A stretch of 64,000 bases of DNA from Candidatus Dojkabacteria bacterium (lineage in GTDB: Bacteria > Patescibacteriota > Dojkabacteria > J137): contig JAMQHH010000001.1 in NCBI GenBank assembly GCA_025993875.1, positions 2,785-66,784 on the forward strand, in the 5' to 3' direction. Positions 32,302 through 58,116 of the stretch are shown here, piece after piece; the first letter of the stretch is position 1, and the number at the start of each line of letters is the position of its first letter. Under the pieces are notes generated by a model. The model saw nothing but the letters and a program-made list of their open reading frames with translations. It made no database searches and was not told the origin of the DNA. Position numbers and translations under genes: made by a program.

Positions 32302-33498
32302 ATGGATCCAACAGATAAAAATTCTGCGCAGGCAAATAAAAGCTTAAATATCTCCCCACTTGGTGCGGGGTACGATTCAACTTTGGAAATTGCCGAGTTA
32401 AGTGAAAGGGTAAAAAATTCAAATATTCCGGTTGATCTTAGAAGCAGAGCGGAAGCTATGATAATGCGCCTTGTTAAAATGACTCATCAAGGCAATTACT
32501 CTTCAGAATTTGAACCTGTTTCCGAATATATAAATTGGATAACGCAAATACCCTGGGAATTTGAATCCGAGGAAAATATAGATATCGAAAAAACAAAAGA
32601 GGAACTTGAACGGTATCATTACGGTTTAGAACCGGTAAAAACAAGATTATTGGAGTATCTTGCCGTATTAAAGCTTCAAAAGGAGATGCAGGTTCAAACA
32701 GCCGAAAAAGTGGCATCTGCTTCTACCGGATCTGCCGAGATGTCAAGGCTGCAGGGAAGTTCATCTCATGCGCCAATTCTATGTTTTGTGGGAATTCAGG
32801 GTGTAGGTAAAACTTCTATGGCAAAGTCAATCGCCAATGCTTTAAACCGTAAATTTGTCCGAATTGCTCTTGGAGGTTTAAGTTCGGCAACAGAACTTAG
32901 AGGTATACCAAAAGGAACAATAGGAGTTGCAGAACCTGGTCAAATAGTTAAATCACTTATAAGAACTAAGTCTATGAATCCTTTAATTTTACTCGATGAA
33001 ATAGATAAGGTAAGTAGCCAAACAGGTTTAAGAGCAGATGTAATGGCTGCCCTCCTGGAAATATTAGACCCCGAACAAAATTCCACCTTTATGGATAAAT
33101 ATATAGATTACCCAATAGATTTATCAAAATGCATGTTTATAACTACTGCAAATAATCTTGGCGGAATCTCCGCAGCACTTTTGGACAGACTGGAGGTTAT
33201 AAGGTTTGGGAGTTATACTGATAACGATAAAGTGATGATTGCTAAAAATTATTTGTTACCAAAAGTTAGAGAAGCAACAGGGATAACAAAAGAGCAATTG
33301 GATTTTGAAGACGATGTATGGCCACTGGTAATAAGACCTCTAGGTTTTGATGCTGGGGTAAGACAGCTCGAAAGAACACTAACTGAACTTGCAAGAAAGG
33401 TAGCATTACAGATAGTGAGGGGTGTTTTAAAAAGTGTTAAAATTACCAAAGATAATTTTAGACAATATATTCCGGAGGATATTGGAATATATAGTTAA
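32302..33498 (+). CDS. Lon-like AAA+ ATPase lacking LAN N-domain and S16 protease domain
   Basis: Aligns by eye to the E. coli Lon segment from the helical N-region (YINWITQIPWEF ~ YIDWMVQVPW; YHYGLEPVKTRLLEYLAV) through the whole AAA+ module (ILCFVGIQGVGKTSMAKSIA; LLDEIDK; ITTANN; LLDRLEVI). It stops before the protease domain, and the next gene is on the opposite strand. Confidence 0.7.
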   Translation: MDPTDKNSAQANKSLNISPLGAGYDSTLEIAELSERVKNSNIPVDLRSRAEAMIMRLVKMTHQGNYSSEFEPVSEYINWITQIPWEFESEENIDIEKTKEELERYHYGLEPVKTRLLEYLAVLKLQKEMQVQTAEKVASASTGSAEMSRLQGSSSHAPILCFVGIQGVGKTSMAKSIANALNRKFVRIALGGLSSATELRGIPKGTIGVAEPGQIVKSLIRTKSMNPLILLDEIDKVSSQTGLRADVMAALLEILDPEQNSTFMDKYIDYPIDLSKCMFITTANNLGGISAALLDRLEVIRFGSYTDNDKVMIAKNYLLPKVREATGITKEQLDFEDDVWPLVIRPLGFDAGVRQLERTLTELARKVALQIVRGVLKSVKITKDNFRQYIPEDIGIYS

Positions 33499-34194: not shown

Positions 34195-35424
34195 ATGCTT
34201 AATTTTTTTAAAAAGAAAAATTTTCCTCTTCCGGTATCTGCAGAGGAATTATTTTTGGCAATAGATATTGGTACAGAGTATGTAAAGGTAGCTGTTTATA
34301 GGCTGGATGGAATGGAAGTTGAAGTTATAGGCTACGCCAGAAGAAAACAGATGGAGAGCACAATGTATGCTGCATATATTGTAAATTTAAAGGAGGCCAA
34401 AGATACAGTAGATAAATGCATAGGAGATGCAGTTTTAATGGCAAGAGAGGTTGTTTCAGAAGATAATTTTAGTTTGCCAAAACAGGCAATTATCGGAATC
34501 GCCGGTGAACTTGTTCAGGGAGTTACAGTGGTTGTTAATCTCGAAAGAAACGCTCCCGATACTCCTATTAATCAATCAGAGATAGATTCGATTATCGCAA
34601 AACTTAAAAAACAGACTTTCGAAAGTACAAAAGAAGAGATATCTCAAGAAATAGGACTTAAGCCTAATCAAATTGACGAAATTGATACTTATATCAATAG
34701 CGTATATGTCGACGGAGTTAGAGTCTTAAATCCTCTGGGATATGTAGGAAGCGAGATGGTTTATAATATGTATTCCACCTTTGCACCAAAACTGCATATA
34801 AATAGTGTAAAGCAGCTTGCAGAACAGCTTAATTTATCTATTTTAAAGCTGGTAGTAGAGCCTTATGCTTTATCCCTTGCTTTAAAAGATATTAGAGACA
34901 AAAATGCGAGCTCAATTCTTTTAGATATAGGAGGCGGCACAACTGATGTTGCACTTGTTCATAACGGTGATTTGGCAGGTACAAAAATGTTTGCTATTGG
35001 AGGAAGGGTATTTACAAAAAGCATTCAAAAATATTTAAATCTCGATTTTGATCAGGCCGAACAGATAAAATTAGATTATTCAAACAATAAAGTTGATTCA
35101 GAAAGAAAAAGAGAGGTTTCTACAATAATCGGAAACTCCACAAAGATCTGGCTGGATGGTGTTGAGATAGCGTTATCCGACTTTGACGATGTTACAACTT
35201 TCCCTGCAAAATTTTTGGTTTGTGGAGGGGGTGCATTATTACCCGATATTCAAGAGGGGCTAATTTCTTATCCATGGCAAAACTATCTGCCTTTTCCTAA
35301 ACATCCGAAAGTAGATTTTATTTTTCCTAATCATATAACTAAATTAACCGATAAAACCAGAACTGCAACATTGCCTATGGATGTAACACCATTGGCTTTG
35401 GCTCGAATGCATCTGGAAATTTAA
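34195..35424 (+). CDS. actin-like ATPase of the FtsA/PilM family (second copy; PilM-like)
   Basis: LFLAIDIGTEYVKVAVY phosphate-1 and ILLDIGGGTTDVALV phosphate-2 motifs. The short basic N-terminal leader resembles PilM. Distinct from the ftsA at 5213. Confidence 0.65.
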   Translation: MLNFFKKKNFPLPVSAEELFLAIDIGTEYVKVAVYRLDGMEVEVIGYARRKQMESTMYAAYIVNLKEAKDTVDKCIGDAVLMAREVVSEDNFSLPKQAIIGIAGELVQGVTVVVNLERNAPDTPINQSEIDSIIAKLKKQTFESTKEEISQEIGLKPNQIDEIDTYINSVYVDGVRVLNPLGYVGSEMVYNMYSTFAPKLHINSVKQLAEQLNLSILKLVVEPYALSLALKDIRDKNASSILLDIGGGTTDVALVHNGDLAGTKMFAIGGRVFTKSIQKYLNLDFDQAEQIKLDYSNNKVDSERKREVSTIIGNSTKIWLDGVEIALSDFDDVTTFPAKFLVCGGGALLPDIQEGLISYPWQNYLPFPKHPKVDFIFPNHITKLTDKTRTATLPMDVTPLALARMHLEI

Positions 35425-35429
35425 AACAT

Positions 35430-37406
35430 ATGTCAGTAGTTTTAACAGATAAAATATTTGTAGACCCAAACGATGAAGTTCTTTTTGTAATTGATGCCGT
35501 AAATTCGAAAGAACGGGATAAAGTAATAATTATTATTCCGGAGAACGCATTAATTTTAAGCAGTTTTATAACTTTAAAAATTCTTTATAGAGAAATTATC
35601 AGGTCCAAAAAGATTGTTATAGTGGTAACTGAAGACTCGTTTGGGTTGAATATTGCTCAAAAAGCTGGCTTTGTCGCAGTGCAAAAAGTTTCTCAAATAA
35701 CCGAAGAGCTTTGGGATATAGCGTTTAGTAAAAAAATTAAGGCGCAGGATTTTTTAAGAAACAAAAATAAAAATATCGGTACACCTAGCGAAGACCCTAA
35801 CCTAAAAGAGACACAAGATCGATCTTTTGTTTCGTTACCCACAGAAAAAACCGAAGAGTTGCCACAAGAGATAACAAAACAAGTGAAAGATGAGCAAGAA
35901 GTATCGGATACTAATAAATTTAAGGTCCTACCTAAAAAAATTATAAATATAAATGGGATAGAAGTAATGGTGGGAGGAGATATCGCTTTGTTATCAAATT
36001 CTGCCGAACATGATAAAATAGAGAAAGAGTACGTCGACAGAAATTTTATGAACAAACAGGAGACTGATAAAGTAAGCTCTGGTAAGTTTACCGGGAGGGA
36101 TTTTACAAAAATCGTTAAAAAAGAAAACTTTTGGACAAGATTAAAAAAAGGAAGAAGACCAAATAGAGCAGCTATTTTGGATCCGGATGCTTTGTTTAAC
36201 AAAAGGCAGCAGCGCCAAAAAATATTAAGTAGAATAGGAATAATCTTGGTGGTTGTGTTGGGCGGCGTTTTTACTGCCTGGTTTTTAATTGATAACTATT
36301 CTTCAGTAGATATTCATGCTACCGTAAAGCCTGAAGGTGTAAAAGAGCTTGCTCCGGTGCAAATAACAGGAAGTATATTCGAAACACAACTAAATTTAGA
36401 AGAAAAAATAATACCTGTTGTTGAATATACAGTCGAAAACGTAAGTGCTTCTCGTACAGGTGATGCAACCGGGCAGGGCACAAGAGGCACAAAAGCTCGT
36501 GGTCTTGTTACTATTTATAATACATATACAGAACCAGATCCACAGCCGATTTCTTTACCTGCTGGCACTAAAATAACTAATATCGGCTCTAATTTGGTGT
36601 TTGTTTTATTATCTGATCTTGTGCTGGATGCTCCGGTAAAAGACGGATCGGGTATTTACAACACTCCGTTAATTGAAGATATCGAGGTAGAGGCTTTTGA
36701 AATTGGAGAAAAGTACAATCTTCTTGGAGAAGGTGCATCAAATAACTTTTTGGTAGATGGCTACGAATCTTCTAAAATTAGGGTAACTAAATTTACCCCA
36801 TTTGCAGGAGGAACTTCCGAAAGCTTTGTCTCTGTTTCTAAAGAAAATATCGACAATTTAAAGAAAACTTTTTACGAGGACTTAAAAAAACAAGCTGAAT
36901 CTAGAATCGTTAATCTTATCCCACAGGGTTTTACTTTGTTGGAAGGAAGTATTTTAATAAGCGATGAAAAAATTGAATCCTCCCCAAAGGAGTCAGAGGA
37001 GGCTCCCGATAAGACTTTTAACTTAAACCTTTCGCTAAAAGCCAGAGGATATGCCGTAAGAACAGACTATATAAATTCTATGGCAAGATCTTTACTACTC
37101 TTAACGAAAAGTGATAAAGATAATATCGATATCGAAGAGATAAAAGAAGCAAATATTACTTTTGTCTCAGAAGCTGATAACAAGATTTTAATCTCACTGG
37201 CTTCTAAGGGATCTTTTAAAAACATTGTTGATAAAGATATGCTAAAAAATTCGATTGTTAACAAGTCTTTTGAAGAGGCTAAAGCGATTTTAAAGGGGAA
37301 CCCAGATTTATCGGATGTTAGAATCATATATACGCCATTCTTTGTACCTCAGTTTCTTCAACGTATTCCCTGGTCGGTAAATAGAATTACGGTTACATTA
37401 AACTAA
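35430..37406 (+). CDS. bitopic membrane protein (cytoplasmic N-domain, one TM, ~370-aa extracytoplasmic domain), hypothetical
   Basis: Lies 5 nt downstream of the PilM-like gene. Has a single hydrophobic helix (IGIILVVVLGGVFTAWFLI) around residue 265. Confidence 0.5.
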   Translation: MSVVLTDKIFVDPNDEVLFVIDAVNSKERDKVIIIIPENALILSSFITLKILYREIIRSKKIVIVVTEDSFGLNIAQKAGFVAVQKVSQITEELWDIAFSKKIKAQDFLRNKNKNIGTPSEDPNLKETQDRSFVSLPTEKTEELPQEITKQVKDEQEVSDTNKFKVLPKKIININGIEVMVGGDIALLSNSAEHDKIEKEYVDRNFMNKQETDKVSSGKFTGRDFTKIVKKENFWTRLKKGRRPNRAAILDPDALFNKRQQRQKILSRIGIILVVVLGGVFTAWFLIDNYSSVDIHATVKPEGVKELAPVQITGSIFETQLNLEEKIIPVVEYTVENVSASRTGDATGQGTRGTKARGLVTIYNTYTEPDPQPISLPAGTKITNIGSNLVFVLLSDLVLDAPVKDGSGIYNTPLIEDIEVEAFEIGEKYNLLGEGASNNFLVDGYESSKIRVTKFTPFAGGTSESFVSVSKENIDNLKKTFYEDLKKQAESRIVNLIPQGFTLLEGSILISDEKIESSPKESEEAPDKTFNLNLSLKARGYAVRTDYINSMARSLLLLTKSDKDNIDIEEIKEANITFVSEADNKILISLASKGSFKNIVDKDMLKNSIVNKSFEEAKAILKGNPDLSDVRIIYTPFFVPQFLQRIPWSVNRITVTLN

Positions 37407-37498
37407 CACTACTTGACAATAAATTTCTCAAACTGATAATATTAGCAACAGCAACTACTAGCTGCTAATTTTTACATTATTTTATTATTTTTAAGCTT

Positions 37499-39478: not shown

Positions 39479-39498
39479 AAAATTGCTCAAAAGAGTGT

Positions 39499-39530
39499 AA
39501 AAATCCCGCCTTTGGCGGGATTTTTATTTT
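39499..39530 (+). terminator. rho-independent terminator after groEL
   Basis: Stem AAAAATCCCGCC / GGCGGGATTTTT with a TTTG loop, followed by a T-run. Confidence 0.7.
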
Positions 39531-39570: not shown

Positions 39571-39933
39571 TTGCACAAAAAATTTATGAGAATAATAATA
39601 GTAAACTATTTTACCTGGTGGTATTTGTTTGTTGTAAAAAAAGCTTTTACAACTTTAGTTTTTAACCCCTTTGTTTTTTCACTCTATAAAACGAAGACAT
39701 TGCCTATGCTTAAAAATTTTTCTGTCCCTTTATTTAGAAGTACAGAGTGGGGTGGAAAATATTTTAGCTTTTTTATTAGGTCTTGTTGGATAATTTTGGG
39801 AACCGCCATTTCATTTTTAAAAGTTATTCCGGGGTTATTTTTTTGGCTGGCAATAACTTTCGTTCCAGTTTTGATCTGGTTGCAGGTTATAAATTTTTTG
39901 ATTATTAATATCAATGGAGCTACTAAAAGATAA
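39571..39933 (+). CDS. small multi-TM membrane protein, hypothetical
   Basis: 120-aa ORF with ~3 hydrophobic helices. Overlaps the start of the Clp ATPase gene. Confidence 0.35.
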   Translation: MHKKFMRIIIVNYFTWWYLFVVKKAFTTLVFNPFVFSLYKTKTLPMLKNFSVPLFRSTEWGGKYFSFFIRSCWIILGTAISFLKVIPGLFFWLAITFVPVLIWLQVINFLIININGATKR

Positions 39934-42496
39934 AGAAAAAATAGGAGAGTATGGTGCTTATTCAATTTATTTAAATTATAAGAGCCTTTTAGGTGCCCGA
40001 GGCCTTAGAAAGCAGATATCTTTCACCGAAAAATTGCTGGGTAGGGTTTTACTGATTATTGGGTCGATCTCTTTTGGAGCTTGGATATATCTTTACTTAA
40101 TGGCAGGCAAATTTAACTGGGCTACTTTAATTCTTCCGCAAAATTTTCCGGATTTTTTTATTACAATCTCTCTTTTTCTTTTTACACTAGGAAGTTTTTT
40201 GTTAAGAAATAAGTCGGTGTTTGATCGTGATATTGGGCTTGTTAATATTGATGAAATTAATAGCCTAACTAAAAAAGGCAGATTATTTTTAGATAAAAAT
40301 TTAAGCGAAAAAATTCTTAATTCTATCGATTATTTTTATTACATAGATTATTCCCATTTTTTTCAGAATTTCTTTTTATTTATTTTTAAGCAAAAAAAGA
40401 TAGATAAACTAATCAACCAGAGGCTTGGGTTGTCTTTTTCACAGATAAGTTTGGCAGTAAAAAATTTTTCAACAAAAAAAAATCCTGAATTTAAAAAGAT
40501 CTTTCCCGAACTTATGCTTTTGGCATTTGATCTGGCTGTAAAAAACAGGTTAAAAATAATTGACGAGGTTGTGCTGGCGACTACAATTCTTAAATATTAC
40601 ATTAAAAGTTTTTTACTAGAGTTTGATGTGACCGATCTAGAAATTGAAAGCCTAAAACAGTGGGTGTTCGATTCGATAAAATTAAGGGAATTTAAAAAAA
40701 GATGGAAAGTTATTTCCAAGTTAAAGCCTGTCGGAGCAATCAACTCTGCATTTACTTCCAAAGCTACCCCGATTTTAGATAAATACTCAACAGATTTAAC
40801 AAAACAGGTTGCTTTAGGGGAGTTCGGCACTGCACTTGGCAGAGAAGGTGCTATCTTAAATATTTTAAAGTATCTGGAATCTTATCAAAGTACTTCGGTT
40901 TTACTTTTGGGAGATCCGGGCGTAGGTAAAACAAGGGTATTTTTAGAGCTGGCAACAAGGATGGTTATAGAAGATGTCCCTAAATCCATTTTAGATTCAA
41001 GATTGATATCAATAGATATATCAGAACTTTCCGCAAAGCTAGAAAATAAAGAGGAGATCGAACAGGTAATAATAAAAATGATGGAAGAGGTGCTTGGTTC
41101 AGGAAATATTGTATTGGTAATTGATCATCTTGCGCAGATATGGGATATTTCGGGAGGTGCAGCAGGTGAACTGGTAGATTTACTGGCGTCTTTTGTAAAA
41201 AAATCAAAAATAAAATTAATAGCTTCATCTAATTATTCAGACTATATTAAATTTATTAAACCTCAGCCTTTATTGGCCTCACTTTTTACTGTGGTCGACC
41301 TACCCGAGCCGCAGCCTTTTTTAGCAATGCAAATACTTTTAGACGAAAGTGTTTTATTAGAAAAAAAATTTCAGGTAAAAGTTGAAACTTCAGCTATAAA
41401 AAGAATCATAGAGTTTGCGAACAAATTTGATACTCATAAAAAAATGCCTGCCAAAGGGCTGGAACTTTTAAACGAGGTTATTTTGGAGGTAAAAAATAAG
41501 GGTGAAAATCATATAAATTCGAGAAGTGTGGAGGAACTTCTAGGAAAAAAATTAGGAGTAAGTGTAGGGTTTATTTCTCAAACCGAAGCTGAAAAACTTT
41601 TACACCTAGAAAGTGTATTGGGACAAAGAGTAATTGGGCAACTGGAGGCTATCAGTTCTGTTTGTAACGCTATTCGGAGAACAAGAACCCGAGTTTCTTA
41701 CTCCAAAAAACCAGTAGCGTCGTTTTTGTTTTACGGACCTACAGGGGTAGGGAAAACAGAAGTTGCAAAAGCGCTTGCCCAAGTTTATTACGGAAGTGAT
41801 CAGAAAATAATCAGGTTAGATATGTCGGAATATAATGAGGAGGAAAATCTTTACAGATTAATCGGCAAAACTGACAAAGATGGAAATTTTGAAGGAGGAT
41901 ATTTAACCGAGTCGGTAAGAGCAGCGCCATTTTCGCTTATACTTTTAGATGAACTTGAAAAATGTAATAAAAAGGTGCTGGATCTTTTTTTGCAGGTACT
42001 CGATGAAGGTTCGTTAACCGATGGCATAGGTCGCAAAATTGATTTTTCCAGTTGCATTATTATTGCAACCTCAAATGCCGGAACTCAGGCTATTACTGAA
42101 CTTATAGAAAAAACAGATAATTATAAAGAGGTCGAAATAGCATCCAGATCCGAACTGGAAAAAGTCTATAGAATAGAATTTTTAAACAGATTCGATAAAG
42201 TAATTATGTTTAGACCTTTAACAAAATCAGAGGTAAAATTAATAATTGAAAAATTTTTAAATATTTTAGCCAAAAGATTGCTGGAGCAAAGTATAGTTTT
42301 AAAATGGGACGATAAAACTATAGAAAGTTTATTATTAAAAGGGTATAGTTATAAGTACGGAGCTAGAGAAATTTTAAGAACAATAACCGAGGAAGTAGAG
42401 GATAAAATAGCAAATTTAATAATCGAAAAAAAAGCAAAACCAGGTTCGATAATAACTTTTGCAGGTCTAACTCCCGAAGTTAGTATTAGCAGTTAA
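39914..42496 (+). CDS. ClpA/ClpB/ClpC-family double-AAA+ ATPase with N-terminal transmembrane domain
   Basis: NBD1 Walker A LLGDPGVGKTRV and NBD2 Walker A FYGPTGVGKTEVAKALA. RLDMSEYNEE...GGYLTE and LLDELEKCNKKVLDLFLQVLDEGSLTDGIGRKIDFSSCIIIATSN are ClpA/B signatures. The first ~280 aa contain 2-3 hydrophobic helices in place of Clp_N repeats. Confidence 0.8.
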   Translation: MELLKDKEKIGEYGAYSIYLNYKSLLGARGLRKQISFTEKLLGRVLLIIGSISFGAWIYLYLMAGKFNWATLILPQNFPDFFITISLFLFTLGSFLLRNKSVFDRDIGLVNIDEINSLTKKGRLFLDKNLSEKILNSIDYFYYIDYSHFFQNFFLFIFKQKKIDKLINQRLGLSFSQISLAVKNFSTKKNPEFKKIFPELMLLAFDLAVKNRLKIIDEVVLATTILKYYIKSFLLEFDVTDLEIESLKQWVFDSIKLREFKKRWKVISKLKPVGAINSAFTSKATPILDKYSTDLTKQVALGEFGTALGREGAILNILKYLESYQSTSVLLLGDPGVGKTRVFLELATRMVIEDVPKSILDSRLISIDISELSAKLENKEEIEQVIIKMMEEVLGSGNIVLVIDHLAQIWDISGGAAGELVDLLASFVKKSKIKLIASSNYSDYIKFIKPQPLLASLFTVVDLPEPQPFLAMQILLDESVLLEKKFQVKVETSAIKRIIEFANKFDTHKKMPAKGLELLNEVILEVKNKGENHINSRSVEELLGKKLGVSVGFISQTEAEKLLHLESVLGQRVIGQLEAISSVCNAIRRTRTRVSYSKKPVASFLFYGPTGVGKTEVAKALAQVYYGSDQKIIRLDMSEYNEEENLYRLIGKTDKDGNFEGGYLTESVRAAPFSLILLDELEKCNKKVLDLFLQVLDEGSLTDGIGRKIDFSSCIIIATSNAGTQAITELIEKTDNYKEVEIASRSELEKVYRIEFLNRFDKVIMFRPLTKSEVKLIIEKFLNILAKRLLEQSIVLKWDDKTIESLLLKGYSYKYGAREILRTITEEVEDKIANLIIEKKAKPGSIITFAGLTPEVSISS

Positions 42497-42505
42497 AAAC
42501 AATTT

Positions 42506-42925
42506 ATGAAAAAAAATATTGTATCACTAGGATTTTCGGTTTTGATTTGTGGAGTATTATTATTTTCCCCGACGCAATATGTATCGGCTCAACAGCCGTC
42601 TGTCACTACAACAATAGCTGCAGGATTGGATAATTTAAATTATAAAATTCCTTGCCCAACAGTTTTTTGTTCGCTGGAAGATGTAGTAAATGCTGCAGCC
42701 AATTTGATAAGGCCAATATTCGTACTAACTTTTATTGCTATGTTAATTTATGGAGCATGGCTATGGCTTACATCACAAGGGGACGATAAAAAGCTCGGTA
42801 CGGCAAAAAAAGTAATTATTGCTGCAATTATAGGTTTTGCACTGGCTGTTTTTGCACCTACAATAGCACAGTTTATTGGCGGGCTTTTAGGGGTAAGTAA
42901 TGTATTTTCGTTACCAACAACATAA
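42506..42925 (+). CDS. secreted two-helix membrane protein, VirB2/TrbC pilin-like (paralog 1)
   Basis: Sec signal peptide ending VSA|QQ. Cys pair CPTVFC. TM1, loop SQGDDKKLGTAKK, then TM2. Confidence 0.6.
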   Translation: MKKNIVSLGFSVLICGVLLFSPTQYVSAQQPSVTTTIAAGLDNLNYKIPCPTVFCSLEDVVNAAANLIRPIFVLTFIAMLIYGAWLWLTSQGDDKKLGTAKKVIIAAIIGFALAVFAPTIAQFIGGLLGVSNVFSLPTT

Positions 42926-42927
42926 AT

Positions 42928-43581
42928 ATGTTTAAAAAAATAACTGCTACAATTACAATGCTCATTACTGCAATATTTTTGGTCACTTCTTTGGAGGTAT
43001 ATGCTCAGCCGGCAAACACTAATCAAACAGGCCAAGGCTCATGCGAGGGTGATCCCTATAAAATACCTGCACAATGCGAGGATAATTTTGTAATTGATCA
43101 GGAATGCCAGACAATTAAAATTTTAAGCCCGCAAAGTGAACAGGCAAGAACCTGCTGCCTTCATAAGTGTAAAGATGAACAGACTTCCGTAACAGGAAAT
43201 ACCGATAATATTTTAGATCAAAAGGATCTTTCTTTCTTAAATGTTTTTGGAGTAAGGCTTGGACTGGATTTTTCGGAGTCCGGCCGAACAAAAACAATTA
43301 CCACGTTAATTAATCTTGTTATTACAACAATTCTTGGAATATTTTCTATGTATGCACTTTTTAGAGGAGTTTACCTTGTGGCAATACAAAGGCCTGTTTT
43401 AATAAAACCCGAAGATATTTCTAAGTTAAACAAACAATTTACAAGTTTAATTGTAGGGTTTGTTTTGGCCTGGGGTATAATTTTTATAATTCAGGTAGTG
43501 TTTGCATTTTTGGGGCTAGGCAGCTTAACAGACTTTAATTTCGAAAACGCAGCAAACGGTATAACAATAACTATTAAGTAA
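42928..43581 (+). CDS. secreted Cys-rich ectodomain + two-helix pilin-like protein (paralog 2)
   Basis: Signal peptide ending VYA|QP. A 7-Cys N-terminal module followed by two TM helices. Confidence 0.55.
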   Translation: MFKKITATITMLITAIFLVTSLEVYAQPANTNQTGQGSCEGDPYKIPAQCEDNFVIDQECQTIKILSPQSEQARTCCLHKCKDEQTSVTGNTDNILDQKDLSFLNVFGVRLGLDFSESGRTKTITTLINLVITTILGIFSMYALFRGVYLVAIQRPVLIKPEDISKLNKQFTSLIVGFVLAWGIIFIIQVVFAFLGLGSLTDFNFENAANGITITIK

Positions 43582-43593
43582 GTAATTATTAAA

Positions 43594-44196
43594 ATGAAAA
43601 AACATTTACTTTCTATATTGTTTTTTATTTTGGCTGCCTTAGCTGCAGGAGCTTTTCCCATTGCTTATGCGCAATCAACAGAAAATAATATTGATATTGG
43701 TTTGCCCGAAGTTGCAATAAGTCCGATTACAATCCCTCTTTTTGGCGCACCAATCGATTTAGGAAATTTTTCAATATACTCCTGGGCAGTATTTTTGGGA
43801 GGAATTATCTTTGCCCTAATTATTGCTTATTGGATATTTTTGTTTTTAAGAGCAGGGGTAGAGGCAATGCAAAGTAATGGAAAACCCGAAGTTTTAGCCG
43901 ATGCAGGCAAAAAGGCAAGATCAATTTTAATTTCGGCTGCATTAACTTTTTTAGTGCCAATTATTTTAAGTGTAATTGGAGCTATTATGGGTATAGGCAA
44001 CGTTTTGGCATGGCCAAAGATGTTTAGTTTGTGCAACACCAAGGTTAGGCAATATATTGATGAAAATGGAGATCTCTCAACCGTATTCGATTCTCCTGCA
44101 GGCAAGAGTTTCTATTTTCAATATTATATTGAAAATCCAGATACTGCCGATTCAAATTGTTTTGCAGATTTAGGTAATAAATCTATTTATAGATAA
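43594..44196 (+). CDS. secreted two-helix pilin-like protein with C-terminal Cys-containing tail (paralog 3)
   Basis: Signal peptide ending AYA|QS. TM1, loop RAGVEAMQSNGKPEVLADAGKK, then TM2. C-terminal ~60 aa carry 2 Cys. Confidence 0.55.
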   Translation: MKKHLLSILFFILAALAAGAFPIAYAQSTENNIDIGLPEVAISPITIPLFGAPIDLGNFSIYSWAVFLGGIIFALIIAYWIFLFLRAGVEAMQSNGKPEVLADAGKKARSILISAALTFLVPIILSVIGAIMGIGNVLAWPKMFSLCNTKVRQYIDENGDLSTVFDSPAGKSFYFQYYIENPDTADSNCFADLGNKSIYR

Positions 44197-44209
44197 ATAA
44201 TTCGTATTT

Positions 44210-44656
44210 ATGAATAATATTGAAGTATTAAAAAGAATAAAAATAACTTGCATTTTTCTTTTGATGCTTATTACCCCTTTAACTTTGTCAACAGCTGTAT
44301 ATGCTCAAACCGATTCCACCTCTTTATGTGGGCTTTTCCCATGCGATCAATACACCCAGGACAGCAAAAATATAGATGTTGGATCTTTAATTAAATTTGG
44401 TTTAAGTGCTGTATTTGTTGCAATTATAATTATTGGAATTTTTTCGGTAATTAGAGCTGCTTTAAAAATAATTCAAAGTGAGGGAGACCCTAAAAAACTG
44501 GAGGAGGGAACAAATGTTTTAAAGGGAGTATGGTTTGGGCTGGTTATTATCTTTTTGGGGGTATTTGGGATAATTTTTATATTAATATTTTTTAATGCCC
44601 AGGGGGCAGCAGATCCAAATACAAACCTGCCACCTGGAGTTTTAACAAATCCGTAA
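44210..44656 (+). CDS. secreted two-helix pilin-like protein (paralog 4)
   Basis: Signal peptide ending VYA|QT. LCGLFPC Cys pair. TM1, loop IQSEGDPKKLEEG, then TM2. Confidence 0.6.
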   Translation: MNNIEVLKRIKITCIFLLMLITPLTLSTAVYAQTDSTSLCGLFPCDQYTQDSKNIDVGSLIKFGLSAVFVAIIIIGIFSVIRAALKIIQSEGDPKKLEEGTNVLKGVWFGLVIIFLGVFGIIFILIFFNAQGAADPNTNLPPGVLTNP

Positions 44657-44733
44657 TTTAAGTTAAACTATTGACTGTAGTAATTTATAATGATAAATTC
44701 AGAGGAGAATATATATAAATATTTAAAATTAGT

Positions 44734-45204
44734 ATGAAAAAAATTGCTCTTTCGGTGTTATTTCTTGCCATTTCGTTTTTTTCTATGCCTTTCCCTGTTT
44801 CTGCTGCAGGTACAAATAATCTTGTCTGCCAAATCTTTCCATTCTTAAGTTCAGTAGATGCATTTGGCATAAACTCTCTTTGCAGTGGTGTTACTGATCC
44901 TTCTGCGGCAACAAGTTTTATAAGATTTTTACTATCAGCAGTATTTGTTGGGATAATAATTATCTCAATCTATGTAGTAATCAAATCGGCATTAAAATAC
45001 ATACAAAGCGAAGGGGATGATAAAAAAATAGGAGAAGCAAGCAAAGCAATAAAAGCAGTGTTTATAGGTATAGCAGCTCTTTTTGTAGGAGTAATAGGAA
45101 TAATAATAGTGCTGGCATTTTTTAAGGCAACAGGGGCTTTAAAAACGGAAGATACACCAGACATAATTGATAACCTGCTAAGTACACCTTCACAATCGAA
45201 ATAA
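44734..45204 (+). CDS. secreted two-helix pilin-like protein (paralog 5)
   Basis: Signal peptide ending VSA|AG. VCQIFPF...LCSG Cys pair. TM1, loop IQSEGDDKKIGEASK, then TM2. Confidence 0.6.
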   Translation: MKKIALSVLFLAISFFSMPFPVSAAGTNNLVCQIFPFLSSVDAFGINSLCSGVTDPSAATSFIRFLLSAVFVGIIIISIYVVIKSALKYIQSEGDDKKIGEASKAIKAVFIGIAALFVGVIGIIIVLAFFKATGALKTEDTPDIIDNLLSTPSQSK

Positions 45205-45270
45205 GCACAGAGGTGATTCTGAGCCTTTTAAAACTTTTTTGAGGGCACTAAATAAGTATACAAAGATAAA

Positions 45271-46128
45271 TTGAAAAGAACTTTGCTGAAAACAATAAAA
45301 ACCGTTCCTTTTTCCCAATGGACAGGATTTAAGAAAAATTTTTTATTGCTACTTCTTTCTCTCTTATGTTTTATAAACTTTACGCAAACAGTTTCGGCCC
45401 AGTTTAGCAGCTCAGTTTTATCGGGTAACGATCCGGCCAGTTACGTTTGCCCGGGTGAAGATCCAGGCCTTCCGGTTAAAAGTGCAGACGATACTTGTAG
45501 TGCAGCAGACGGTAAATGTCGCACCCTGCCTTATTTGGATTCCACTTCTGGTTATTATGTTTGTAAATCAGACACCGGCATTGTAAGAGCAACACTAAAA
45601 GCTCCGCCATTGCAGCAACTTGAACTTTGGTTTAGAAGAATTTTGTATGCCATATGGGCAATTGTAGGATCTTTTTCTTTTGTTATGCTTATATACCTTG
45701 GTTATCAGTATATGATTCGCGGAGGAACAAGCGATCAGGAACTGGTAAAACTAAGAAAAGCGATTATTAATTACGTAGTTGGTTTTGCTTTAGTTTTTCT
45801 TTCTATTCCAATTTTAACTACCTTTTTTACAGTACTGGGAATAAATAAAAATGTAACTTGTTACGATGTGGCAATGCCTGGTTTTCAATTTTTCTTTTCG
45901 GAACTTTGCACTGATCCAAAGTATATACTTGTAAACGACCCATGCACATATTACGATAAAGCTGAGGGATATGCGTGCCCAGAAGTGGGAGAGACAGGTG
46001 TGAGGTGTATTATTAATCCTACGATTAACCCAACAGAGATACAATACAAATGTATATCAATAGAAGGATCATCTTCTGGCGCTGGAATTTGGAAACTAAT
46101 CGAAAGTGGAGTTCATGAAGAGTTTTAA
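45271..46128 (+). CDS. secreted Cys-rich two-helix pilin-like protein with Cys-rich C-terminal domain (paralog 6)
   Basis: Signal peptide ending VSA|QF. A 5-Cys N-module. TM1, loop RGGTSDQELVKLRK, then TM2. The ~95-aa C-terminal domain has 7 Cys. Confidence 0.55.
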   Translation: MKRTLLKTIKTVPFSQWTGFKKNFLLLLLSLLCFINFTQTVSAQFSSSVLSGNDPASYVCPGEDPGLPVKSADDTCSAADGKCRTLPYLDSTSGYYVCKSDTGIVRATLKAPPLQQLELWFRRILYAIWAIVGSFSFVMLIYLGYQYMIRGGTSDQELVKLRKAIINYVVGFALVFLSIPILTTFFTVLGINKNVTCYDVAMPGFQFFFSELCTDPKYILVNDPCTYYDKAEGYACPEVGETGVRCIINPTINPTEIQYKCISIEGSSSGAGIWKLIESGVHEEF

Positions 46129-47807: not shown

Positions 47808-49586
47808 ATGAACAGTGCTATAAAAAAACAAAATCTATCTAACTTAGTTATCTTTCTTCTTGTCGGACTTCTTTTTTTAAATCCGATAAATAACGTTATT
47901 GCTTTAACTTCCTCCGAAATTGTCGAAGAAAAAAGAAAACAGGAAGAAAAACTTGCTCAAACAGAATCTGAGATAGCAAGGCTAAATAGCGAAATTGCCG
48001 GTTATTCGTCGGACGTGAATATTGCACAGGCATCCATCCCCGAACTGGAAAATCAAATTAAAAAGATAGAAGCCCTGATTGAAGTAAATAAGCTCGAAAT
48101 TGAACAGACCCAAAGAAAAAAAGAGCTAACAAAATTAAAAAAAGAAGAAACAGAGCTTTTAAGACGAGAAAGTGTTAAAAGTTCGTACTTTGACTGGAGA
48201 ATTGATGTAGCCGAAATATCAACTCTATTTGTTTCCGAATTCGATAATAAAATGTCCGAATTCTTTTCTACTGCGGTTGTCAATAAAACAAGTAAGGATA
48301 TTATAGAATTAGCTCAAACAATAGACAATTTGGAAAGTGACATACAAAAATACAATAAAGAGAACGAAGATTTAAAAAAACAAAATTCAGATTTGGAGTA
48401 TAAAAAAAACGAAGTAATGGCGAGAATTGCATACCTTAATTCAATTATTGCAGGTAACAATTCTTCTATAGGTAACCTGCAGTCGGAAGTAAAAACTCTG
48501 CAATCCAATATCTCTTTTTTAAGTGAACAGCAAAGAGTTGCCGAAGAGAGGGAAAGACAACTCCTCGAAAATGATGATGGTGGTGAAAGCGGTCCAGGAA
48601 ATTCTTTCGATACTTCTGATGGTACAGTTCCATTTGCTATATTTGGAAGAGGAAGAGATCTTTATCAGGGGCACGGTGTTGGTTTAAGCCAGTGGGGAGC
48701 TCATGGGTTTGCTCTAAATGGCTTCGATTACAACTATATTTTAAGGTTCTACTATACAGGTGTAGATTTATCGGGCGGGTATGAAGGTGCCACAGTAAAT
48801 GTAGATGGGTACGGAGCGATTAACATAGAAGATTATGTGGCGGGACAGGAAGAAATAGCAGGACGAGCATGTGGTTCGGCGGAGCAGGCTCTAGCCAGAC
48901 CCGATAAATATGTTGTCGATAACCCTAACAGTATGTGGGATTGTTGGCCGGAGGAAGCAATAAAGGCTTTTGCAATAACATATAGAACTTACGGATATTT
49001 TTATAGAGGGTTTTTGTATAGGGATGGGCGTTCGCAGGTTTATAATGGAACGGGATATACAAGGTGGGCAGCCGATGAAACACGGGGGATTGTTATAACA
49101 TATGGCGGTGCTCCTATCGAAGCCTTATATTCTTCCGATAATAACCAAGGTTTTGGTACAGCAAATAACGATACCAGATTTCAGTCGTACAGTGGAGCCG
49201 GCACACCATATCCTTATTTAAGATCGGTAAACGACAACTCTATGGCGACAAGAACAGCATATACAGATTTTACTTACCGTACAGGAAACTACGATATCTC
49301 ACATATAAACAGCATGATAGATTTTGGTGTATCCAGGCCTGATATTGTCGGAGGATTATCGGGGTACTTAGCAGGTTTAAAAAATACAATAGGTAATCAG
49401 GCTGCATCCTTTATTGTAGAAAGGGATCCATCAAATAGAGCCGACAGAGTTAAATTTATGGGGTATAATGGATCTACAGCATATTTGGGGGGGTACTGGT
49501 TTAAATATCTGTGGAATGAATGGAGCTATGCTATTGGTGCAAACGACTATTTATATAGCCAAACATATTTTTTTCAATCTATATAG
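47808..49586 (+). CDS. membrane-anchored coiled-coil protein with C-terminal SpoIID/LytB-like domain (cell-wall remodelling)
   Basis: N-terminal anchor followed by ~230 aa of coiled coil. The SpoIID/LytB hallmark GHGVGLSQWGAHGFALNGFDYNYILRFYYTGVDL is present. Confidence 0.65.
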   Translation: MNSAIKKQNLSNLVIFLLVGLLFLNPINNVIALTSSEIVEEKRKQEEKLAQTESEIARLNSEIAGYSSDVNIAQASIPELENQIKKIEALIEVNKLEIEQTQRKKELTKLKKEETELLRRESVKSSYFDWRIDVAEISTLFVSEFDNKMSEFFSTAVVNKTSKDIIELAQTIDNLESDIQKYNKENEDLKKQNSDLEYKKNEVMARIAYLNSIIAGNNSSIGNLQSEVKTLQSNISFLSEQQRVAEERERQLLENDDGGESGPGNSFDTSDGTVPFAIFGRGRDLYQGHGVGLSQWGAHGFALNGFDYNYILRFYYTGVDLSGGYEGATVNVDGYGAINIEDYVAGQEEIAGRACGSAEQALARPDKYVVDNPNSMWDCWPEEAIKAFAITYRTYGYFYRGFLYRDGRSQVYNGTGYTRWAADETRGIVITYGGAPIEALYSSDNNQGFGTANNDTRFQSYSGAGTPYPYLRSVNDNSMATRTAYTDFTYRTGNYDISHINSMIDFGVSRPDIVGGLSGYLAGLKNTIGNQAASFIVERDPSNRADRVKFMGYNGSTAYLGGYWFKYLWNEWSYAIGANDYLYSQTYFFQSI

Positions 49587-50339: not shown

Positions 50340-50544
50340 TTTATCGAAAGAAATATTAGAATTTTTAAAACTAGCCGCAATTTTATTTGGGCTTTTTCAT
50401 GTTTTGTTTGGATTTGTCTTATTTGTTAGAACCAATAGAATAAATAGCATTTTAAGAACAAGTAGTTCCTGGATAATTTCGATTATTGGAATTTTTTACA
50501 TTACTTTATTAATATTTGTCGTTTTATTACTTATATCGATTTAA
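50329..50544 (+). CDS. small two-TM membrane protein, hypothetical
   Basis: 71-aa ORF with two hydrophobic helices. Confidence 0.3.
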   Translation: MEINLSKEILEFLKLAAILFGLFHVLFGFVLFVRTNRINSILRTSSSWIISIIGIFYITLLIFVVLLLISI

Positions 50545-50545
50545 T

Positions 50546-56606: not shown

Positions 56607-56680
56607 AGGCTCGTAGCTCAGTTGGTTAGAGCACGGTTCTTATAAAGCCGGGGTCCGCAGTTCGAATCTGCGCGAGCCTA
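56607..56680 (+). tRNA. tRNA-Ile (anticodon UAU)
   Basis: Hand-folded cloverleaf. Acceptor AGGCTCG/CGAGCCT, D-stem GCTC/GAGC, anticodon stem CGGTT/AGCCG with loop CTTATAA, T-arm CGCAG-TTCGAAT-CTGCG. Body resembles bacterial tRNA-Ile. Confidence 0.75.
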
Positions 56681-56749: not shown

Positions 56750-57595
56750 TCATTCAGGAAAAATTTTTGGGATTAAAAATTTTTCTGTTCTTTGGTGTCT
56801 GTTTGAATTTGTAAGGTATTTTTTAGTAGTAATTATATTTTTATGGCCAACCAATTTACTTACTGTTTTTAGTTCCATGCCCGAAGCAAGCTGAAATACT
56901 ATAAAAGTATTGCGTAAGTCGTTTACACATAAATTTTTTACTTTAGCCTTCTCAAATATTCTATCTAGACCGCTACGTATATTTCTTACTTCTATAGACT
57001 TCCCGGTGTTAGTAGAAAAAATAGGATAATCGGGTAGAGATCTTTTTCCAGCTAATTTTAAGTATTGATCTAATAGCTGATGTATCTTTGAGTTTAGCGG
57101 TACCTGCCTGCTTGCAACTGTTATAAATTTGAAATTCTTATCTAAATCTTTTATTTTAAGTGCACTAAGCTCAGAAATCTTTAGACCGGTCTGAAGAAAA
57201 CACTCAAATATTGTTAGCAACTTAATATTTTCAACACTCCCCAAAATTATTGAATTATATTCATTTTTTGTTAAAACTCGTAAGGTTTTTACCCTATATT
57301 TAGGATGCGAGATTGCTTTTGCAGGATTTATTTTAATAACTTCTACACTAACCAGATAATCAAAAAATTTTTTTAGACTGTTTATTTTTCTTGAAACAGA
57401 TTGTGGAGAAAGTTTGTATCTATATTTTAGAGTGGTTAGCAATTGCAAAAGATCTTTGGTTGAAACTTTTGGCAAGCTATCTCCTGAAATTGCAATTATT
57501 TGATTTAAATCGTTCGTATATGCATGTATCGTTGACTCTGTTCTGCTATTATGTTTAAGATAGGTTGTAAATTTGGATAGGTAATCTTGTATCAT
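56750..57595 (-). CDS. tyrosine recombinase, XerC/XerD-like (phage-integrase family)
   Basis: N-terminal SAM-like core-binding domain (TIHAYTNDLNQ...FFDYL). C-terminal catalytic motifs LRNTFIVFQLASGMELKTVSKLVGHKNIITTKKYL (R, HxxR, catalytic Y). 281 aa. Confidence 0.8.
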   Translation of the reverse strand: MIQDYLSKFTTYLKHNSRTESTIHAYTNDLNQIIAISGDSLPKVSTKDLLQLLTTLKYRYKLSPQSVSRKINSLKKFFDYLVSVEVIKINPAKAISHPKYRVKTLRVLTKNEYNSIILGSVENIKLLTIFECFLQTGLKISELSALKIKDLDKNFKFITVASRQVPLNSKIHQLLDQYLKLAGKRSLPDYPIFSTNTGKSIEVRNIRSGLDRIFEKAKVKNLCVNDLRNTFIVFQLASGMELKTVSKLVGHKNIITTKKYLTNSNRHQRTEKFLIPKIFPE

Positions 57596-58072: not shown

Positions 58073-58116
58073 CTGCTTTTTTATAGTATAATCTCATCAC
58101 TATTATAGAAATTGTT

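Follow-up and report, generated by a model that had tools for sequence, protein, structure and literature searches.

We analyzed a 64,000-nucleotide stretch of Candidatus Dojkabacteria bacterium DNA (hereafter "the window"; positions 2,785–66,784 of contig JAMQHH010000001.1, assembly GCA_025993875.1), focusing on the gene at 39914–42496 (+), an open reading frame (ORF) that runs from ATG to stop and encodes an 860-amino-acid (aa) Clp/Hsp100-family ATPase with a predicted membrane anchor. A public protein collection holds an essentially identical 860-aa protein (P0001), and because ten full-length relatives at 38–42% identity also align from their first residues, we take the gene and its start codon to be real. 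This bears on a first-pass annotation of the same DNA, made from its letters and ORFs, which described a membrane-anchored ClpB/ClpC-type double-AAA+ unfoldase and named a mis-called start as one thing that would undo this description; orthologs of ~40% identity that align from residue 1 support the start, and a mis-called start was ruled out on this conservation. The window as a whole has a G+C content of 31–38% and carries housekeeping genes throughout, and the organism is of the Dojkabacteria (WS6) type within the Patescibacteria (CPR).

Genomic setting of the Clp gene

The Clp gene begins 436 nt downstream of groEL, an arrangement conserved in Dojkabacteria, and an intrinsic terminator after groEL sets groESL apart from a unit composed of a small gene, the Clp gene and a pilin array (Table 1). 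A strong sigma-70-like promoter (TTGACA-16-GATAAT, 11/12 matches) lies before groES at 37413–37472 (+) and overlaps an inverted repeat, TTAGCA-N15-TGCTAA, that has the spacing of a CIRCE element (controlling inverted repeat of chaperone expression) and a degenerate core. A scan that allowed up to 3 mismatches found no CIRCE element anywhere in the 64-kb window. Because groESL ends at a terminator and groES has a promoter-like site and CIRCE-like repeat of its own, the sequence signals place the Clp unit outside the groESL transcript. Heat-shock co-regulation with groESL was considered and ruled out, given the lack of a CIRCE match, the single degenerate repeat before groES and the terminator after groEL.

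On the downstream side, the first of six pilin-like genes lies on the same strand and starts 9 nt past the Clp stop codon, and no terminator was called at this junction; the Clp gene and the six pilin genes are thus probably co-transcribed. Pilin genes 1, 3, 4, 5 and 6 match a hidden Markov model (HMM) built from pilin-like neighbors of distant family members. The first-pass annotation had placed the Clp gene directly before, and co-oriented with, a cluster resembling a type IV secretion system (T4SS). The adjacency, shared strand and uninterrupted junction stand, while the "cluster" shrinks considerably: the only recognizable T4SS-like parts in the window are the VirB2-like pilins and a VirD4-like gene 11.6 kb downstream, and neither VirB4 nor VirB6 nor VirB3 was recognized among the window ORFs scanned. 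The VirD4/TraD-like coupling-protein homolog (54093–56546, +) follows smpB and shows weak family matches. An 838-aa ORF was considered as a VirB4 and rejected on its NHL-type beta-propeller repeats. The Clp protein itself matches no T4SS family.

Table 1. Positions within the window of the Clp gene, its predicted protein regions and the adjoining features
Feature	Position	Strand	Basis
Intrinsic terminator after groEL	39497..39527	+	13–14-bp perfect stem with 6 G-C pairs, 3-nt loop, T-run
Small partner gene, 115 aa from ATG	39586..39933	+	homologous upstream ORFs; public-collection protein P0121
Clp/Hsp100-family ATPase, 860 aa, predicted to be membrane-anchored	39914..42496	+	ORF, domain matches, alignment, AlphaFold2 and Foldseek
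Predicted N-terminal beta-hairpin, aa 7–21	39932..39976	+	AlphaFold2 strands 7–13 and 16–21
Predicted transmembrane hairpin: TM1 aa 32–64, outer loop of ~14 residues, TM2 aa 80–96	40007..40201	+	hydropathy, AlphaFold2
Putative divergent Clp_N (double-repeat helical), aa ~112–268	40247..40717	+	hhalign, HMM of distant members, Foldseek
Family-specific linker motif KPxGxxN..(Y/F)T..ATPxLDx(Y/F)SxDLT, aa 270–296	40721..40801	+	conserved columns
D1 AAA+ module, aa ~300–555, degenerate	40811..41578	+	alignment to S. aureus ClpC, family motif table, Walker A spacing
D2 AAA+ module, aa ~556–768, catalytically complete by motif	41579..42217	+	Pfam AAA_2, alignments, motif table
D2-small (ClpB_D2-small), sensor-2 GAR 816–818	42218..42457	+	Pfam PF10431 at aa 769–848, E 2e-17
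Six tandem VirB2/TrbC-like (T4SS_pilin) genes	42506..46128	+	PF18895 matches in genes 1 and 6; HMM matches

A membrane hairpin precedes a divergent Clp_N domain

Kyte–Doolittle hydropathy marks two hydrophobic segments near the N-terminus of the Clp protein, at aa 45–63 and 79–97 (peaks of 2.0 and 1.76). Two AlphaFold2 runs returned the same layout (predicted local distance difference test scores of 87.6 over the whole protein and 80.6 over aa 1–298), with helices at ~aa 31–64 and ~78–96 and a compact helical domain at aa 112–268. Of the two to three hydrophobic helices claimed previously, two therefore stand; a third candidate at ~aa 148–160 was ruled out, as its hydropathy is below threshold and the stretch falls inside the Clp_N-like helical domain of the model. 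Lysines and arginines number 9 before the first transmembrane (TM) helix, 1 in the loop and 6 after the second, a positive-inside pattern that predicts an N-in/C-in hairpin. The hairpin is kept in all Patescibacteria relatives examined (P0001–P0043) and is missing in the canonical ClpB control. The beta-hairpin that precedes it is a remnant of a CxxCxGxG...CxxC zinc ribbon carried by most distant family members, with cysteines seen in P0013, P0017, P0024 and L028–L033. These cysteines are gone in the window protein and in the entire Dojkabacteria clade—a clade-level loss and no reason for exclusion from the family.

The region after the hairpin had been read as ~280 residues replacing Clp_N. 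We find instead that the two predicted TM helices sit in ~100 prepended residues and that a divergent Clp_N follows. Pfam and HMM searches did not detect Clp_N directly in the window protein, and a direct hhalign comparison with canonical Clp_N was weak (27% probability). The connection is transitive: aa 119–274 of the window clade match the Clp_N region of distant family members (hhalign 98.6%, E 1.4e-15), and those members match canonical Clp_N HMM positions 4–141 (E down to 1e-15) after a hairpin of their own. The top Foldseek match of the N-terminal model is the N-domain of Plasmodium HSP101 (PfHSP101; target-normalized TM-score 0.66, probability 1.00, with a weak E of 0.16), followed by the N-domains of Hsp104, ClpD and Leishmania Hsp100. 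This transitive profile match and the modeled resemblance to Hsp100 N-domains together indicate that Clp_N is retained in divergent form, with the ~100 residues prepended to a standard N-domain. The linker between TM2 and Clp_N spans ~15–20 residues, and a family-specific motif links Clp_N to D1 (Table 1), in and around which W250 (nearly invariant, just ahead of the motif), T281, T285, D294 and T296 are invariant or near-invariant.

One degenerate and one complete AAA+ ring

The first-pass annotation took both nucleotide-binding domains to be intact, which does not hold for D1. The D1 module gives only weak Pfam matches, and we compared it residue by residue with S. aureus ClpC, Pseudomonas ClpB and a ClpC-like protein. 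Its Walker A is retained (GDPGVGKT, aa 333–340), and its Walker B reads VLVID-H (D404-H405), with H in place of the E of the usual D-E. The arginine fingers are lost (ERRFQ aligns to ASLFT), and where the reference pore loop has AGAKYRGEFE the window protein has AKLENKEEIE, with no aromatic residue and the KYR tyrosine gone. Degeneration of D1 is family-wide: Walker B appears as EE, ED, EN, DN, NN or PD, distant members even have arginine at the position of the Walker A lysine, and D1 is degenerate with D2 intact in 42 relatives and likewise in 22 Dojkabacteria sequences. By its motifs, then, D1 is a pseudo-ATPase, and since the P-loop is intact, D1 of the window clade probably still binds nucleotide.

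D2 matches Pfam AAA_2 at aa 599–762 (E 8e-47) and is the only one of the two modules in which all catalytic motifs are complete: Walker A GPTGVGKT (aa 608–615), Walker B LLDE (D679-E680), sensor-1 TSN (N721) and the arginine finger FLNR (R759). These four motifs and sensor-2 (G816, A817, R818) are invariant among the 42 relatives. The RLDMSEY...GGYLTE and LLDELEK signatures listed in the first-pass annotation are indeed present, and both belong to D2. The pore loop of D2 departs from the canonical APPGYVGY: it spans G651-KTDKDGNF-EGG662, includes F659 and reads GKTDKDGNFEGG where the canonical loop is GAPPGYVGYEEGG. Dojkabacteria loops follow the pattern [YF]xDxxG[NEK][FY]xG, and the aromatic (GN[F/Y]) is kept in 21 of 22 sequences. 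Among the dereplicated distant members, approximately 7 of 39, including one clade, carry the canonical APPGYxG.

Two further hallmarks are missing. In the window protein the two Walker A motifs lie 275 aa apart, and across the family 269–280 aa, compared with 399 aa in ClpB and 337 aa in the ClpC-like protein; the window protein is collinear with E. coli ClpA residues 165–732, and its AlphaFold2 model contains no long coiled coil. We conclude from this spacing and the model that the M-domain is absent. The ClpP-binding IGF/LGF loop, whose presence had been left unverified, is likewise absent: FAGFG of S. aureus ClpC falls in an alignment gap of the window protein, and of 110 family sequences, 109 have no [LIVM]G[FLM] tripeptide in the 25–30-aa segment that separates sensor-1 from the arginine finger of D2, whereas the corresponding segment of ClpC-type controls measures up to 41 aa and contains LGF or VGF. 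Scores also fall short of every curated NCBIfam cut-off compared (ClpB, TIGR03346, 408 of 1232 bits; ClpA 375 of 993; ClpV/TssH 361 of 885).

With tandem D1- and D2-type AAA+ modules and a D2-small domain, the protein belongs to the class-I Clp/Hsp100 proteins. It lacks the M-domain and the two competent, tyrosine-looped rings of ClpB, as well as the (I/L/V)-G-(F/L) docking loop of ClpA, ClpC and ClpE. Because it has neither M-domain nor ClpP loop and scores below all curated cut-offs, its sequence identifies it as none of ClpB, ClpC, ClpA or ClpV. The earlier description as an anchored, Hsp100-type double-AAA+ protein is therefore kept and its ClpB/ClpC-type label dropped. A further candidate identity, the DolB component of the Dodola defense system, was ruled out, as the DolB match covers D2 only (E 2e-33), no neighbor has a PADLOC match and the locus shows core-genome synteny.

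A small membrane protein gene is paired with the Clp gene

Directly upstream of the Clp gene lies a small gene whose end overlaps the Clp start by 20 nt and which has an alternative TTG start at 39571. Its 115-aa product is present in the public collection (P0121) and has an aromatic WWY motif near its N-terminus, a core with conserved P48...G57...R65 and a hydrophobic stretch of ~45 residues toward its C-terminus; it belongs to no Pfam or PADLOC family, and a word-indexed protein search with it returned only 2 close relatives. In each of the 32 Clp-anchored loci for which upstream sequence is available (32/32), including those of Clp members at only ~30% identity, the Clp gene is immediately preceded on its own strand by a homologous ORF of 105–130 aa, whose W11, P48, G57, R65 and P94 are shared between the window and even the most distant copies.

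The pairing also holds in the reverse direction. A metagenome scan with the conserved peptides of the small protein alone gave at least 536 confirmed loci. Of the best 80, the 49 that extend at least 3 kb downstream were scored. In 48 of the 49 the next same-strand gene is a Clp-like ORF (median length 911 aa, median gap 3 nt), and in the single exception the Clp gene lies ~5 kb further on. The small gene and the Clp gene are thus a near-obligate two-gene module. An apparent 999-aa fusion of the two (L076) was ruled out as an out-of-frame ORF extension.

Family extent and genomic neighborhoods

The survey of the N-terminal architecture called for by the first-pass annotation revealed a large family. 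A profile of this architecture retrieved 209 clusters (50% identity) at E ≤ 1e-30 and 618 at E ≤ 1e-10 from a search space of 1.84 billion cluster representatives, while a word-indexed search with the N-terminal profile returned 1 match and scanning loci with an alignment of 16 family sequences turned up no conserved stretch. Full-length members measure 850–940 aa. The window protein shares the features that mark the family: a TM hairpin before Clp_N, degenerate D1, invariant D2 motifs, no M-domain, the linker motif and a co-oriented upstream membrane-protein gene (WWY ... P-[LM]-[FY] ... G ... SF.xR ... TM region). Relatives have been deposited under generic names such as "AAA family ATPase" or "ClpC," and at least some of the genomes also carry a canonical ClpB/C (L008, and Southlakia SEML1_0512). 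We found no literature description of a membrane-anchored Patescibacteria Clp/Hsp100, of its inactive D1 or of its partner, though the searchable literature is incomplete and this is not conclusive.

In 20 of 20 distinct Dojkabacteria-type loci with enough downstream sequence, the order is small gene, Clp gene, pilin array; the same 20 loci continue with a ~500-aa protein, p247 and an NHL-repeat protein, and in most of them a SpoIID-like gene separates the ~500-aa protein from p247. Outside the Dojkabacteria class we counted neighbors in 39 dereplicated metagenome loci. YidC, with RnpA and YidD, lies upstream in 8 of these 39, all in one clade; a VirB2-like pilin gene lies within three genes downstream, always on that side, in another count of 8/39 spread over at least three separate clades; and an MraY/WecA-like transferase lies immediately downstream in 7/39, with one apparent fusion in addition (P0158). 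The remaining loci have housekeeping neighbors in no pattern, and in 31 of the 39 there is no pilin-like gene within ~6 kb. Counted by position, pilin-like genes make up 0 of 244 upstream and 8 of 129 downstream neighbors (Fisher p = 1.8e-4, not corrected for relatedness). The pilin link thus recurs and yet is a minority feature, and the sole universal neighbor is the small partner. All three recurrent neighbors—YidC, VirB2-like pilins and the MraY/WecA-like transferase—are integral membrane proteins.

Individual loci add some detail. In L028, L029, L031, L032 and eight metagenome loci (e.g., L034, L038, L044), the pair is appended to rnpA-yidD-yidC with gaps of a few nt, forming what looks like an operon that includes the YidC membrane insertase. 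P0158 (1231 aa, on a 21-kb NCBI contig) is a family ORF that runs on into an MraY/WecA-like (Glycos_transf_4-type) polytopic membrane domain, which may be a genuine fusion or the result of a lost stop codon. In one relative, L002/L017, the two genes of the pair come directly after a VirD4-like gene (L002, 4714–7056).

A probable orthologous pair in Southlakia epibionticum

Published data for Southlakia epibionticum allow a comparison with a Patescibacterium studied by transposon sequencing (Tn-seq). SEML1_0700, annotated as an "AAA family ATPase," is a 2583-bp gene for 860 aa with AAA_2 at 544–706 and D2-small at 713–792, only weak D1 matches and no Clp_N match (PMC10633639). The hypothetical gene immediately upstream, SEML1_0701 (384 bp), overlaps it by 22 nt, and the structural neighbors of its product are membrane proteins (PMC10633639). 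These two genes are the probable orthologs of the Clp gene and small gene of the window. At T0, T1 and T2 both were scored non-essential, non-essential and growth-defect (NE/NE/GD), with normalized reads of 4124, 2517 and 1638 for SEML1_0700 and 258, 157 and 51 for SEML1_0701 (PMC10633639; Wang et al., 2023). In the same data the canonical ClpC (SEML1_0512, with Clp_N and UVR) and ClpP (SEML1_0493) are non-essential and the T4SS pilin array SEML1_0014–0019 is essential (PMC10633639). If the orthology of SEML1_0700 holds, the pair would act as one unit with a mild fitness role alongside normal ClpC and ClpP, and would not be strictly required for the essential T4SS and its pilins.

Other genes in the window

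Several other genes merit mention. A 398-aa "Lon" (32302–33498, +) consists of the Lon AAA+ module and lid only (TIGR00763 positions 244–571 of 795), with neither N-domain nor protease domain, and occupies the same position across Dojkabacteria loci at 65–73% identity. At 34195–37406 (+), a 658-aa membrane protein without a family is encoded 5 nt behind the gene of an FtsA/PilM-like actin-fold ATPase of 409 aa, a pair conserved upstream of groESL throughout Dojkabacteria. Beyond the pilins, a 592-aa protein (47808–49586, +) that has a coiled coil at its N-terminus and carries a SpoIID/LytB peptidoglycan-lytic domain keeps synteny with the pilin array in most Dojkabacteria loci and could serve a VirB1-like wall-opening function. 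The 838-aa NHL-type beta-propeller protein (50516–53032, +), which matches designed Pizza propellers and the sensor domain of PknD, is also conserved on the downstream side of the pilins. A tRNA-Ile gene whose anticodon, TAT (UAU), is seldom used to read AUA lies at 56607–56680 (+) and adjoins a tyrosine recombinase/integrase gene (56750–57595, −); two tRNA-Met genes lie at 58116 and 59192.

Proposed function and alternatives

With a confidence just past the halfway mark, we read the Clp protein as a ClpP-independent, membrane-proximal remodeling machine representing a Patescibacteria-wide and so far uncharacterized class-I Clp/Hsp100 subfamily. The chain would run from the remnant zinc-ribbon hairpin through the TM hairpin, divergent Clp_N, D1 and D2 to D2-small, and the protein would form a hexamer, as other Hsp100 proteins do, in which the D1 ring probably binds nucleotide without hydrolyzing it and the D2 ring should be fully active. 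From the missing M-domain and ClpP-docking loop it would follow that the machine most likely works without M-domain coupling to Hsp70 and without ClpP. The Clp protein and the small membrane protein would be made together and most likely form one membrane complex, with the N-in/C-in hairpin, and probably the TM region of the partner too, holding the ring at the membrane. In solved Hsp100 structures the Clp_N/D1 side is the substrate-entry face. Because the predicted linker from TM2 to Clp_N is short and Clp_N sits on the D1 entry face, that face would lie up against the membrane on its cytoplasmic side, where D2-powered, ATP-driven remodeling or extraction could act on membrane-embedded or membrane-emerging proteins, the machine working alone or passing its clients to other factors. 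Such remodeling or extraction from the membrane is the most likely activity, rather than delivery of cargo to a secretion channel. In Dojkabacteria, where the pair appears to head an operon with six VirB2-like hairpin pilins, the pilins would be prime candidate clients, subject to quality control, turnover or management of the pilin pool in the membrane. More tentatively, and as a possibility that we would not yet put forward as likely, the pair could be an undescribed, near-universal two-component machine of Patescibacteria (a pseudo-ATPase D1, a D2 motor and TM hairpins plus a small two-TM partner) that would extract or recycle small hairpin membrane proteins such as VirB2-type pilins or oversee their quality. 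It would then be a bacterial, ClpP-independent equivalent of Msp1 and similar membrane-protein dislocases and would, through its activity, shape the appendages at the cell surface on which these epibionts depend.

Several points weigh against this interpretation. Synteny in Dojkabacteria spans more than 20 kb and runs through unrelated genes, including the upstream groESL, so that gene order by itself argues only weakly for a functional tie to the pilins. Most of the recurrent neighbors elsewhere are housekeeping genes, and adjacency to YidC is confined to a single clade. The family membership of SEML1_0700 is probable by its length, Pfam coordinates and gene arrangement, not by its sequence. 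That the partner binds the Clp protein and that the ring faces the membrane are both things we infer. Finally, the D2 pore-loop tyrosine, which is required for threading in ClpB, ClpA and ClpC, is gone from its canonical position in the window protein, and the D2 loop is short and has no aromatic in approximately 29 of the 39 dereplicated distant members; with this aromatic so widely lost, classical polypeptide threading may not be the mechanism in much of the family.

The last point leads to an alternative in which the machine does not thread at all, and D2 instead drives conformational change in an ATP-driven regulator or gate of a membrane complex with the small partner, broadly in the manner of Bcs1- or Torsin-type AAA+ proteins. 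An invariant set of D2 catalytic residues behind a D2 loop that is short and non-aromatic in most of the family would fit such a gate, as would the loss of the D1 pore loop in all members and the strict pairing, with translational overlap, to a small two-TM protein. The window clade, however, keeps a conserved aromatic in its D2 loop and one clade keeps the canonical APPGYxG, and Clp_N—a substrate- or adaptor-binding module in other Hsp100s—is retained, so we consider a gate improbable, somewhat more so than the next reading. This one, close to what the first-pass annotation had raised, is a dedicated unfoldase or chaperone of a T4SS-like pilus apparatus that unfolds or hands over substrates or is required to assemble VirB2-like pilins. 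The 9-nt gap to the pilin array with no intervening terminator, the gene order kept in 20/20 Dojkabacteria-type loci, the VirD4-like gene directly upstream of the pair in L002/L017, and the placement of pilin-like genes (homologous to those of the window) up to three genes downstream in at least three other clades and never upstream (8/129 vs. 0/244) all speak for it. Yet 31 of the 39 dereplicated loci have no pilin-like gene nearby, VirB4, VirB6 and VirB3 went unrecognized among the scanned window ORFs, and the main text of a survey of Patescibacteria T4SS neighborhoods makes no mention of a Clp-type ATPase (PMC12102498). The family thus extends far beyond pilin linkage. Because an N-terminal anchor would, on the geometry of solved Hsp100 structures, put the entry rather than the exit face at the membrane, and because the probable Southlakia pair is non-essential whereas the T4SS and its pilins are essential, we disfavor a dedicated secretion unfoldase and regard this reading as unlikely.

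Two conventional identities fare worse. An ordinary ClpB-type stress disaggregase, incidentally tethered and expressed with the neighboring groESL, would account for the conserved position 436 nt behind groEL and for a D2 that is closest to the D2 of ClpB or ClpC. ClpB needs its M-domain for coupling to DnaK, and here that domain is missing, D1 appears inactive, a strong terminator follows groEL with the CIRCE-like repeat confined to the region before groES, and a canonical ClpB/C co-exists in L008 and Southlakia (SEML1_0512); we hold this identity to be very unlikely. The least credible reading, to which we give almost no weight, is that of a ClpP-dependent ATPase of the ClpA/ClpC kind, or of a mis-called start that adds a spurious hydrophobic N-terminus. 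The ClpA-like Walker A spacing suits a protease ATPase, but the docking tripeptide loop is missing family-wide, and against a spurious N-terminus stands the conservation of the first 100 residues, in sequence as well as hydropathy, among proteins of 40% overall identity, together with a high-confidence model of this region.

Returning to the membrane-proximal remodeling machine, we rate its novelty at the level of a subfamily and not of a new class of machine. To our knowledge, nearly all characterized Hsp100/Clp members are soluble. Fusion to the membrane, silencing of one ring, loss of both the M-domain and the ClpP loop and addition of a small partner together make a layout new to Hsp100/Clp proteins, in a subfamily of hundreds of 50%-identity clusters. 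This combination of features points to a way of handling proteins near the membrane in a large bacterial radiation that is poorly understood and has minimal chaperone sets. In Dojkabacteria the pair appears to head an operon of VirB2-like pilins, genes of a kind that one Patescibacterium, examined by Tn-seq, needs for epibiotic growth, and the pair's probable orthologs SEML1_0700/0701 tolerate transposon insertions in the genetically tractable S. epibionticum.

Comparison with known systems

The best overall sequence and structure matches are to ClpA (E. coli) and ClpC (S. aureus, B. subtilis and M. tuberculosis ClpC1), with Foldseek E-values of 1e-50 to 1e-39; target-normalized TM-scores of D1+D2 against ClpC, ClpB and ClpA protomers are 0.85–0.88. 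As in ClpA, with which the window protein is collinear, nothing is inserted between D1 and D2. Unlike ClpA and ClpC, the window protein has no IGL/VGF ClpP-docking loop, ClpC M-domain or UVR motif, and it has a degenerate D1, a predicted membrane hairpin and a near-obligate small partner. With ClpB/Hsp104 it shares the two-ring class-I organization, Clp_N, D2-small and a D2 that has no ClpP loop, is ~42–46% identical to that of bacterial ClpB and has a ClpB-like segment length; it differs in lacking the M-domain coiled coil and the Walker B Glu, arginine fingers and pore Tyr of D1, in a D2 loop that is not GYVG and in its predicted membrane anchor.

Hsp100s recruited to a membrane apparatus offer a second comparison. 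Both Plasmodium HSP101, in the Plasmodium translocon of exported proteins (PTEX), and ClpV/TssH, in the type VI secretion system (T6SS), are of this kind, and the N-domain of the former is the best structural match of the modeled window N-domain. HSP101 has no TM anchor of its own and feeds its cargo from the D2 exit into the EXP2 pore, whereas the predicted anchor of the window protein is on the opposite, N-terminal side; ClpV is set apart by the low score of its model (361 bits vs. a cut-off of 885), and no T6SS genes are present. Human CLPB/Skd3 has a single D2-type ATPase ring, with ankyrin repeats in place of Clp_N and D1, and its precursor bears an N-terminal hydrophobic stretch, the protein being soluble after cleavage. 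The window protein would resemble it in relying functionally on one D2-type ring and differs in keeping a complete, if apparently inactive, D1. By analogy, the proposed arrangement resembles that of FtsH and Msp1/ATAD1, which likewise combine an N-terminal anchor with an AAA+ hexamer whose entry face lies at the cytoplasmic side of the membrane. FtsH and Msp1 take proteins from the membrane, and they belong to the single-ring classical AAA clade, while the window protein is a two-ring Hsp100 without a protease domain.

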